NCBI RefSeq assembly: GCF_003019035.1
Contig: NZ_CP027448.1
Strand: one strand, 5' to 3'
DNA from: Escherichia coli
GTDB lineage: Bacteria > Pseudomonadota > Gammaproteobacteria > Enterobacterales > Enterobacteriaceae
DNA length: 64,000 nt
Positions 15,101 to 18,100 of this stretch are shown piece by piece (position 1 is the first letter of the stretch; the number at the start of each line of letters is the position of its first letter). Made by a program: the position numbers.

Positions 15101-18100
15101 AGCATTTGAATGAAGATGATATGACAGATAATGAAAAAATAGAGCTAATGATAAAAGAAATAAAGTCTGTTATTTTAAAAACGACGGGGGAAGACAGCAG
15201 GGTAAGTATTGTAGAAACTGATGGATGCAAACGTATAAATATTTTAATAGATAATGTGTCAAGTTATCTCATTAAATTTTCTCAACATCATAACAACCAA
15301 ACAAAATAATTGCAAATGTATTATATAAATACTGATTGCACATATACAAAGATTGCAATAGAACAGCTACTACGCGAAAAGTATTTTGATGATAAATGTC
15401 ACTGCAATAATATAAAGATCTATGATCTAAGATTTTTAAAAATAGAGGATGTTGCTTATAGATTAATACAGTTATTCAAGGAAAGAATAAAAGCAAGTAT
15501 AATATTTATTTGTTCTGATAGATTTATACATAGCAAAGAAAAACCAAGAAATATATTCTTCCTTGATACAAAAGATAGCATGCGCATTTGGACTAGATAT
15601 TTAAAGAAAATTCGTTATTGTAATAGTAATTTACTTATATGTTTTTTATATCTATGCAGTCTATACCACATTTCTGTTTTTACAGGGAAAAGACAAGTAA
15701 TTATTGCCTGTATAAAGAAAGGTTTTTCTTTTTCTGAAATTGTTAACTTCCTTAATATTAATACCAGAACATTAGTCAATTATATTGGAGGGCTAACAAC
15801 TTATTTTTTTCTTCCATATAGTTATTCTTTATATACATATATAAAAGATAATATTATAGTTTCTTTTTACAAAGAGTATCACATTCTTTTGACAAATCAA
15901 AGGAGATATTATGTCTAACGGGCGCGTCTTATTCTTGTCTATTTTTTCCTGTGTTGTATTCATGTTGTCGGGATGTTCATCTAACCGATTTGCTGCTAGG
16001 GATGCAAACGCTACATATGTTAATACTCAACTAAAGATAATACCTCGTTCTCAAGATAAAATTCAGGCACAATCACAATGTTCAAGAAGTTTTTCTCTAC
16101 TGCAAAAATTAAACACTGATAAATTTAGTATGTATAGAAACCAATTTGATGAGATAAATGATGCATACTATTTTTATAAAAGGAATGTTGGTTTAATGAA
16201 TAAAGACTCTAAGGAATTGATGGCAAGCGTCCTTGATTCTAAACTAGATATGGTATGTGTACGAGTCGATAATGCCTCATTTGTAGGTATTTATGGGAAA
16301 ATGAAAAAAGTTATGGATTTGTAAAAAGGAATGAGGGCTTATTGCCCTCATTATCAACTTATGTTGTTTTGGATCGCATCACTTTGTTGGCTTTCATTAA
16401 TTTTATTATGGGGAACTGGATCCTATCCGTTTATCTTATATATTATTTTTACATTTACAACAATAACTTTATATGCTTTATATTTTATTGGAGAGAATAT
16501 GTTTCCTAAAGGAAGAAAAAATGAAAATGCATCGGCTATAACTATTATTTCAAAGAGTGCATCTTTTATTGGAGATATTAGTTCTAGTGAGAAAATAATA
16601 ATCCACGGTGAAATTAATGGTAACATAAGTGCTAACAATGGTGTTGTATTTATCGACAAAGGAGGAGTTGTCAATGGAAGCGTTTTATGTGAGAAATTAA
16701 TTTTAAATGGAGAGTTGCATGGTGAATGTTGTTGTTCCGTATTAGATGTGTATGAAAATGGTTTTTTACAAGGAGATGTAAGCTATAGAGAGCTTGAAAT
16801 TCGCAATGGCGGATGCATTACAGGAGTTGTAAATAAGATTACTGACGAAATACAAAACAATATATCTGAGTTAGAAAAAAGGAGAGATAAACAAAAAAAT
16901 GAAACTTGAGAATATTATTATATTCCTTGTTATAATTATTACAATTTATTTCGTAATAGCAAATGTAATTGAAGCAAGTAATTACTATAAAGATATACAT
17001 ATTTATTATGAGATATATAGGTAGTTGTATTCAGTACAATAGTCGGTACATAGTATGATAACAGCATTTAGATATTTTATAATTATTATTTTAAGTATAT
17101 ACATAACAGGATGCACTAGTTATAGCTTAAAGAAAGAAGATTTACCTGAAGATATGTTCGCAATAATTTATGGTTCAGACAGCATAAAAAAATATGAACT
17201 AGATCAAGAGGAAGTAACAAAAAATATGAATAGTGGATGTATTGAGGCATTAGTTTTTTTAAGTGAAGAAGAACCCAATAAATATATAGATTATATAAAT
17301 GATTATCATAAAATTGCTGAAGGATATCGTTTCCTTGATCAAAACAGACAATTCATGCATAAAGATGCAATTGAATTATTTGTAAGAGGACTAAATGTAA
17401 AAAAAGATGTTCTCTGCTCAAGAGTCAAATTTGAAAGCTTTCAGTATCTCAAGAATAAATTTCAACAATAGGGATTCATTTTTAATGTATTTATAATTAA
17501 AATATGGATTTGTAAGGAATAACTATTACTTGTTCACTTTATCAAAAGTGCTAACTAAAACTATACATTATGAGATATTGTATGAATACTACAAATATAA
17601 ATATAATTGAATATGACTCAATTATAAATATTGAACTTCCTTATTTGTTGTCTGAAATAGAAGGTTCTCTACTATCTCTATTACTACAAGGATATTCAGT
17701 AAATGAGATATCCAAACAAAGAAAAAGAAGTATAAAGACAATTTCTTGCCAAAAAATAAAGTTGTATAAAAAACTTGGTGTGACAAACGATCTAACTTTA
17801 TGGAGAGATATTTTTTTATTATTTAAGGTAAGTATACAGTCTAAAAATATCTGCCATAATAACTTTAATAAGTTTACTTTAAAAGATATTCACTCTAAGC
17901 ATTACATTATGTCACATTATAACATATATTATCAACCAATATATAATACAAAAAACTGGAGCATTTCTGGATGTGATATTACTATTTCCCCAAAAAACAT
18001 ATGTGATAACATTTTATCATTAGACTCTGGATTGATTAATTCAAGGAAAACCAATAATATATTACCTTATTTATTTAGACGTCTTGATAAATTATTAACC

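Follow-up and report, generated by a model that had tools for sequence, protein, structure and literature searches.

A mobile Escherichia coli gene cassette combining a membrane-anchored bactofilin with paralogous, putative YuaE proteins: a candidate envelope scaffold linked to an autotransporter

We analysed a 64,000-nt stretch of Escherichia coli plasmid DNA (contig NZ_CP027448.1, assembly GCF_003019035.1), hereafter the window. Positions 15911-17471 contain three open reading frames (ORFs) on the plus strand, encoding proteins of 137, 192 and 138 aa, at the heart of a conserved cassette that resembles an operon. The middle gene encodes a bactofilin preceded by two transmembrane (TM) helices, and its neighbours encode two paralogous proteins, probable members of the YuaE family (lip1 and lip2). 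By sequence comparison, the identity of the cassette parts is secure. Its function is more tentative: with a probability of about 0.35, we propose an envelope scaffold in which an anchored bactofilin polymer is coupled to the YuaE proteins and serves a linked autotransporter.

Layout of the cassette

The original prediction, made from the DNA of the window, described two paralogous lipoproteins bracketing a membrane-anchored bactofilin in AT-rich mobile DNA. Within the range that it gave, 15911-17471, the ORFs are present at 15911-16324, 16331-16909 and 17055-17471 on the plus strand, and the surrounding sequence is indeed plasmid DNA bounded by insertion sequence (IS) elements. The trio sits in a 3.6-kb stretch of 25-30% GC with transposase remnants on both sides. 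However, it is not a three-gene unit, because genes for a 62-aa and a 200-aa protein, a hairpin, a 41-aa ORF and a PdeL-like gene also belong to it. The cassette spans 15121-18637, with all genes on the plus strand and separated by overlaps or short spacers, in the order 62-aa gene, 200-aa gene, lip1, hairpin, bactofilin, 41-aa ORF, lip2 and PdeL-like gene. A promoter scan across the AT-rich DNA was uninformative, with 39 sites found against 35 expected. The features are as follows.

15121-15309, plus strand: first cassette gene, predicted 62-aa cytoplasmic protein, kept in F-type variants
15316-15918, plus strand: 200-aa orphan protein, overlapping the lip1 start by 8 nt at its stop
15911-16324, plus strand: YuaE-A (lip1), predicted lipoprotein of 137 aa with a strict lipobox
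16330-16352, plus strand: GC-rich stem-loop between lip1 and the bactofilin gene, with conserved pairing and compensatory changes
16361-16909, plus strand: bactofilin of the Proteus CcmA type (Pfam PF04519), with an alternative in-frame ATG at 16331 and an internal start at 16499
16899-17024, plus strand: unannotated 41-aa ORF, predicted single-pass membrane peptide; its start overlaps the end of the bactofilin gene
17055-17471, plus strand: YuaE-B (lip2), 138 aa, lip1 paralogue with a core lipobox, probable lipoprotein in the window lineage
17570-18637, plus strand: PdeL (YahA)-like regulator, matching PdeL 7pk5, with a LuxR-type helix-turn-helix (HTH) and a degenerate EAL domain

A bactofilin with a membrane anchor and a likely internal start

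The middle protein matched the Pfam bactofilin family (PF04519) over residues 71-167, with E=1.5e-19 and 70.4 bits against a cut-off of 27.9, and the match spanned 97 of the 98 profile positions. Caulobacter crescentus BacA (2N3D) also matched it, at E=8.9e-4. Two hydrophobic segments, at residues 8-30 and 32-54 of the 192-aa ORF, precede this presumably beta-helical domain and were called as TM helices from 19-residue Kyte-Doolittle windows scoring above 1.6; a charged C-terminal tail follows it. The profile match and the hydropathy peaks before the domain thus bore out the predicted bactofilin after two TM helices.

The TM segment stays open and hydrophobic in relatives at 33-61% identity, which share a FWxxxLxxW-like motif, and its ratio of nonsynonymous to synonymous substitution rates (dN/dS) is 0.34-0.42. 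Because it is under purifying selection and its frame is open in relatives only 33% identical, the TM part is presumably translated. The stem-loop at 16330-16352 overlaps codons 1-10 of the 192-aa ORF. As the stem-loop is non-coding in the diverged Salmonella/Citrobacter locus L003 and other gene callers give a bactofilin of 180-182 aa, the membrane form probably starts at ATG 16361 (182 aa), and the annotated start at 16331 is doubtful.

A likely second start lies further inside the gene. Directly after the second TM helix, at residue 57 of the 192-aa ORF, the sequence MFPKGRK begins at an internal ATG (16499), with GGAGAG 5 nt before it. A whole-library search returned 2586 relatives, the nearest of those outside the cassette being about 30-40% identical. 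Of the 150 best relatives, 61 are hydrophobic at the N-terminus, and an MF[GKN]K-type motif follows the second helix directly in nearly all of these 61.

About 3.2% of bactofilins have TM helices, and these are found mostly in Gammaproteobacteria (PMC12448750). In Proteus mirabilis, CcmA occurs as an integral full-length form and as a short peripheral form beginning MFSRKTE, whose N-terminus corresponds to the membrane-targeting consensus MFSKKKK (PMC12448750). By its sequence features, namely two N-terminal TM helices and an internal Met that starts a membrane-targeting sequence, the window bactofilin can be assigned to this class, and two products are likely to be made from the one gene. The prediction had invoked CcmA-type anchoring of both the Proteus and the Helicobacter kind. 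The Proteus type fits, whereas CcmA of Helicobacter pylori has no TM anchor and is probably bound through partner proteins (PMC12448750).

Two paralogous proteins, probably of the YuaE family

The two flanking proteins are paralogous, as predicted, with 27% identity over 112 aa (BLASTP, E=2e-10). Two Cys and about 10 other columns are invariant in 11 YuaE members; together with the signal peptides and the lipobox, the two Cys support a periplasmic location, and a C57-C116 disulfide is predicted. Although the local Pfam copy returned no family for lip1 or lip2, precomputed annotation places lip2-type clusters, as well as relatives sharing 93-95% identity with lip1, in PF27278 ('YuaE'), and we infer YuaE membership for both because these near-identical proteins carry it. 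A profile search of 5.8 billion proteins gave 22 clusters for the family, all from E. coli, Citrobacter or Salmonella. The YuaE family is tiny and confined to mobile DNA of Enterobacteriaceae.

Lipoprotein signals were judged by a PROSITE-like rule requiring a basic n-region, a hydrophobic h-region and a lipobox ending in Cys at positions 15-35. The expectation that both proteins carry a lipobox held for lip1 and only in part for lip2. lip1, which has the ribosome-binding site AGGAG, satisfies the strict rule (FSCVVFMLSGC, Cys22, Arg5, +2 Ser), and the lipobox match is kept in five lineages. Under the +2 rule, lipoproteins with Ser at this position are transferred to the outer membrane, so this location is predicted for lip1. 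In lip2, the core lipobox (ITGC, Arg6, +2 Thr) is present, but Tyr at -4 breaks the strict rule. Its orthologues in L003 and L007, at 41-44% identity, start with an ordinary signal peptide and lack a lipobox Cys in context. lip2 is best described as a periplasmic paralogue, probably lipidated in the window lineage.

AlphaFold2 modelled lip1 as a disordered tether (residues 21-47) followed by a three-helix bundle (48-136) at a predicted local distance difference test score (pLDDT) of 85-91. lip1 is the most constrained cassette gene, with a dN/dS of 0.04 and 70-73% identity even to the diverged lineage; the dN/dS of lip2 is 0.08-0.14.

A conserved RNA hairpin between lip1 and the bactofilin gene

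The stem-loop at 16330-16352 has the sequence AATGAGGGC-TTATT-GCCCTCATT and a folding energy of -16 to -18 kcal/mol (z about -4). Across 8 lineages, pairing is retained in 96% of cells, compared with 33-55% in slid-partner controls. Three pairs show compensatory double changes and several are G-U pairs, which favours an RNA structure over a protein-binding DNA palindrome. In L003, the stem-loop contains an internal ATG followed by an in-frame stop, hence its non-coding status there. No Rfam family matched it. A canonical terminator was ruled out, as no T-run follows the stem-loop on the plus strand. The element may instead set the ratio of lip1 to bactofilin output, possibly by stabilising the upstream transcript or by limiting translation from the start codon 9 nt downstream, which has no Shine-Dalgarno sequence.

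Small proteins and the regulator of the cassette

The 62-aa protein is kept in all F-type variants at 52-87% identity, with a dN/dS of 0.11-0.30. It aligns end to end with a 58-aa ORF (L012, 4767-4943) of a 7-kb Citrobacter farmeri plasmid, where the ORF overlaps the stop of a TM-bactofilin that is nearly the sole cargo of this mobilisable plasmid. Smith-Waterman alignment gave z=10.4, with 0 of 5000 shuffles scoring as well, and a profile search among 904 ORFs gave E=8.9e-5; BLASTP and tblastn detected no similarity between the two. Homology is therefore probable, not proven. The likeness suggests that the 62-aa protein is a cytoplasmic partner of the TM-bactofilin class.

The 200-aa protein has homologues in E. 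coli only, at 66% identity or more, with a dN/dS of 0.11-0.20. One copy bears the name 'LuxR C-terminal-related' from the Prokaryotic Genome Annotation Pipeline (PGAP). As this name was the only indication of a LuxR regulator, we dropped the label. No Pfam or NCBIfam family matched the protein at E up to 1, a PDB sequence search returned nothing, and hhalign gave a probability of 0.1% for a relationship with the cassette's own HTH protein. Its AlphaFold2 model was unusable (pLDDT 45).

An ORF of 41-42 aa with one hydrophobic helix occurs at the same position in F, L002, L003, L007 and L027. In L031 and L032 it is annotated as a gene, and its dN/dS is 0.3-0.6. Sequence similarity between the F and RTX (repeats-in-toxin) lineages is marginal (z 1.5-2.9). 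Position and size agree across all lineages and hydrophobicity is conserved, but we claim no sequence homology between lineages. The RTX lineage has a second conserved hydrophobic ORF of 27 aa (L003 4342-4425, L007 4820-4903).

The last gene encodes a full-length, collinear match to PdeL (7pk5, E=1.6e-55), with Pfam matches to EAL (E=7e-26, 91 bits) and GerE (E=4e-6). An active EAL phosphodiesterase for cyclic di-GMP (c-di-GMP) was rejected, since most catalytic and metal-binding residues are substituted (EVLVR to DITIS, ELTE to QLST, DDFG to NDFG, KID to SLH, EGVE to DGIE and QG to KG) even though the EAL fold is present. Aligned to the PdeL/YahA structures, the protein retains just the Asn, the second Asp and a single Glu of these residues. 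The F plasmid copy shows the same degenerate pattern, and in the L027 and L030 lineages only an HTH part of 89-91 aa remains (L027 9534-9803).

Distribution, selection and exchange between plasmids

The cassette was found with intact reading frames in 54 of 5426 complete E. coli genomes. A few cattle E. coli plasmids carry it at 99.8% identity, and 48 further complete genomes at about 83%. It is not restricted to this plasmid: the classical F plasmid carries it at 83% identity, as do the F' strains XL1-Blue, JM109, TG1 and Stbl4, and the trio is present on 88 PLSDB plasmids, 75 of them conjugative. On F, it lies among IS elements, outside the tra and Rep regions.

All cassette genes are under purifying selection, with dN/dS values from 0.04 (lip1) to about 0.4 at dS of 0.5-1.6. 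The order lip1, hairpin, TM-bactofilin, small TM ORF and lip2 is kept in the Salmonella and C. werkmanii loci, where identities are 73% for lip1, 33% for the bactofilin and 41% for lip2. Conservation of order at such divergence points to the core acting as a functional complex. In these loci, an AraC-type regulator comes after the trio, along with an hlyCABD-like operon whose RTX protein is unusually short (893 aa; L003 4879-11607, L007 5352-12072). A further lineage, represented by L027 and L030, has the cassette between a two-partner-secretion locus (a ShlB-type TpsB and a 1437-aa TpsA) and a microcin B17-like operon (McbB, a nitroreductase and YcaO; L027 641-4954 and 15263-18108, L030 1-5920). 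Truncated versions also occur: L014 has lost lip1, and L024 has a fusion of the bactofilin to the HTH.

The cassette and the autotransporter show opposite identity patterns, a sign of mosaic ancestry. The 3' part of the autotransporter gene is 99.5-99.9% identical to F-type plasmids and about 97% identical to p1RM8082, whereas the cassette is 99.8% identical to p1RM8082 and only about 83% identical to F. Several diverged cassette alleles have therefore been exchanged between similar plasmids.

Linkage to an autotransporter

Two genes near the beginning of the window recur close to the cassette elsewhere.

101-3007, plus strand: large classical autotransporter, C-terminal 968 aa, cut by the window start
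3719-4411, plus strand: 230-aa hydrophobic protein after the autotransporter, without a Pfam or NCBIfam family

The full-length F orthologue of the autotransporter matches TIGR01414 (E=1.3e-88). The window protein is 51% identical over 887 aa to an autotransporter in L003 that ends 400 bp upstream of lip1, 48% identical to that of L007 and 62% identical to that of L024, which ends 58 bp before the 62-aa gene. On less disrupted F-type plasmids, the order is autotransporter, 230-aa membrane protein and then cassette. Copies of the 230-aa protein with 75-79% identity occupy the same position in L002, L021 and L022, and one with 55% identity adjoins the decayed cassette of L014 (10402-11121). The presence of orthologous autotransporters directly upstream in three diverged lineages led us to propose that the cassette is an accessory scaffold for the autotransporter. 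Judged from this gene linkage, the one new clue to function, a cell-surface role fits better than a general role in cell shape.

A proposed envelope scaffold and alternative explanations

In the proposed scaffold, the bactofilin gene would give two forms, one integral to the membrane and one shorter and peripheral, that assemble into a polymer against the inner membrane's cytoplasmic face. This polymer would be coupled to both periplasmic three-helix-bundle proteins through the 41-aa peptide and the anchor's short periplasmic loop; one of the two proteins may be tethered to the outer membrane by a flexible linker of about 25 residues. Transcription would be controlled by the cassette's own HTH proteins. 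Most speculatively, the assembly might position or assist secretion and display of the autotransporter instead of determining general cell shape. The specific claim that such a trans-envelope scaffold, dedicated to a type V secretion substrate, governs the site or the efficiency of autotransporter export and display seems rather unlikely to us at present.

Several observations weigh against the scaffold and its link to the autotransporter. Contacts between the bactofilin domain and the periplasmic proteins are purely inferred, and as the membrane-form start codon lacks a Shine-Dalgarno sequence, the amount of the anchored form is uncertain. Record counts for autotransporter and trio are nearly equal (89 versus 88 plasmids, 53 versus 54 genomes), but they come mostly from one plasmid backbone, that of F and its relatives, and are not independent events. 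On F and in the window, the autotransporter and the cassette are separated by IS elements and as much as 12 kb, yet neither shows visible decay. Neither L027/L030, where the cassette adjoins the two-partner-secretion locus, nor L014, where it adjoins a microcin exporter, has the autotransporter. Finally, the TM-bactofilin of the 7-kb C. farmeri plasmid has the 58-aa partner only, and an Aeromonas chromosomal TM-bactofilin has neither lipoproteins nor an autotransporter.

Some of these observations lend credit to a stand-alone morphogenetic or polarity module, in line with the original prediction of a portable module for the cell surface or polar localisation. It would alter local cell-wall growth or mark a pole in any host that the plasmid enters, with the autotransporter as a mere neighbour in the island. 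TM-bactofilins occur without an autotransporter in Aeromonas and on the small Citrobacter plasmid, and the cassette persists where IS elements have split off the autotransporter. Moreover, the bactofilins characterised so far work chiefly on shape and on cell-wall enzymes, and altered CcmA gives curved cells in P. mirabilis (PMC12448750, among other sources). However, no gene for an M23 peptidase, penicillin-binding protein or LD-transpeptidase was found in or beside the cassette in any lineage, and the autotransporter stays adjacent in three diverged lineages. To our knowledge, no shape change has been reported for F+ or F' E. coli, although silencing of AT-rich DNA could hide a phenotype. 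Taken together, we consider this module a doubtful, though serious, alternative to the scaffold.

A regulatory island is unlikely. Here the HTH proteins, mainly the PdeL-like one, would reprogramme motility, biofilm or adhesin genes of the host, with signals sensed by the envelope proteins as their input. A full-length PdeL paralogue with replaced EAL catalytic residues fits a sensor or regulator better than an enzyme, the HTH part is retained where the EAL domain is lost, and an AraC-type regulator holds the equivalent position in the RTX lineage. Yet the most constrained gene is lip1, not a regulator, and the core trio is kept while regulators swap between lineages. The PDB search, AlphaFold2 and hhalign gave no support for DNA binding by the 200-aa protein.

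A benefit to the plasmid itself is still less probable, whether as a scaffold that positions plasmid DNA or machinery or as an envelope barrier for exclusion or anti-phage defence. The family is almost confined to plasmids, 75 of 88 being conjugative, and one 7-kb mobilisable plasmid carries little cargo besides a TM-bactofilin; in Myxococcus, bactofilins are reported to organise ParABS. However, periplasmic partners make no sense for DNA positioning, and the F copy lies among IS elements away from tra and Rep. PADLOC searches with six proteins gave no match except one at chance level (E=0.015), and PHROGs gave nothing meaningful. In addition, mini-F and pOX38 lack the cassette region but show normal replication, partition and transfer. 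Lastly, the many flanking IS remnants and the truncated versions in L014 and L024 could suggest decaying, functionless hitch-hiker DNA, but this is scarcely credible given dN/dS well below 1 in all genes at dS of 0.5-1.6, intact reading frames in 54 complete genomes and compensatory changes in the hairpin.

Surrounding plasmid DNA

A block inserted between the autotransporter and the cassette (4400-14430) contains IS66 and ISNCY-like transposase remnants, together with genes for a catalase-peroxidase (7867-10080) and a TIR-domain protein (12203-13027, minus strand). Downstream, positions 19000-43000 of the window match virulence plasmids of cattle E. coli, on which there are an AIDA-type autotransporter and its heptosyltransferase, an S6-family peptidase (SPATE, serine protease autotransporter of Enterobacteriaceae) and many copies of IS66, IS3 and IS21.

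Novelty and significance

The sequences have long been public and the bactofilin class has been described. Full-text literature searches found no publication on the cassette as a system, comprising the periplasmic pair, the micro-ORF, the hairpin, the 62-aa partner, the degenerate PdeL regulator and the autotransporter linkage, nor any on the F-plasmid bactofilin, on yuaE or on a link between bactofilins and autotransporters. The purpose of having integral plus peripheral bactofilin forms was called unclear in a 2025 eLife study (PMC12448750). The cassette places a TM-bactofilin, together with periplasmic partners that appear dedicated to it, on plasmid F in E. coli, where two-form production, cross-envelope coupling and function are easier to test than in any other organism.

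If the autotransporter link is functional, it would offer a way in which type V secretion is controlled spatially, and the scaffold would be the first cytoskeletal factor described as assisting autotransporter biogenesis; through F, common laboratory strains would carry it. It would also mean that cytoskeletal scaffolds can be brought in by a mobile element. If the link is not functional, there is still a conserved seven-gene unit, with a structured RNA and a missed small ORF, on a much-used plasmid where it is annotated only as hypothetical proteins.

Comparison with known systems

The closest counterpart in architecture is P. mirabilis CcmA, likewise gammaproteobacterial, which shares the two N-terminal TM helices, the internal Met with a membrane-targeting sequence (MFSRKTE versus MFPKGRK in the window) and the bactofilin domain. 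The window protein differs in that it is plasmid-borne, only distantly related in sequence, and embedded between two periplasmic paralogues with a 41-aa membrane ORF.

Small lipoprotein genes beside type V adhesin genes have precedents. In Salmonella, the gene for SadB lies beside that for the autotransporter adhesin SadA and influences its display; in Fusobacterium, the lipoprotein FAD-I influences RadD expression from a four-gene operon with two further small proteins. However, SadB, a lipoprotein of the inner membrane, serves a trimeric autotransporter, and a bactofilin is part of neither system. YuaE showed no similarity in sequence or fold to SadB or FAD-I. The cassette regulator resembles E. 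coli PdeL (YahA), a LuxR-HTH and EAL transcription factor and c-di-GMP phosphodiesterase, in its two-domain architecture; unlike PdeL, most EAL catalytic and metal-binding residues are substituted in the window and F copies, and one lineage lacks the EAL domain.

Among better-characterised bactofilin systems, BacA-PbpC of C. crescentus, BacA-LmdC (M23) of Hyphomonas neptunium and CcmA-Csd5/Csd7 of H. pylori have peptidoglycan enzymes or regulators as clients, whereas the cassette partners are predicted to be small three-helix bundles without an enzyme signature. In each of these systems, a cytoplasmic polymer is tied via membrane proteins to periplasmic partners encoded nearby, and the proposed scaffold would follow the same plan.

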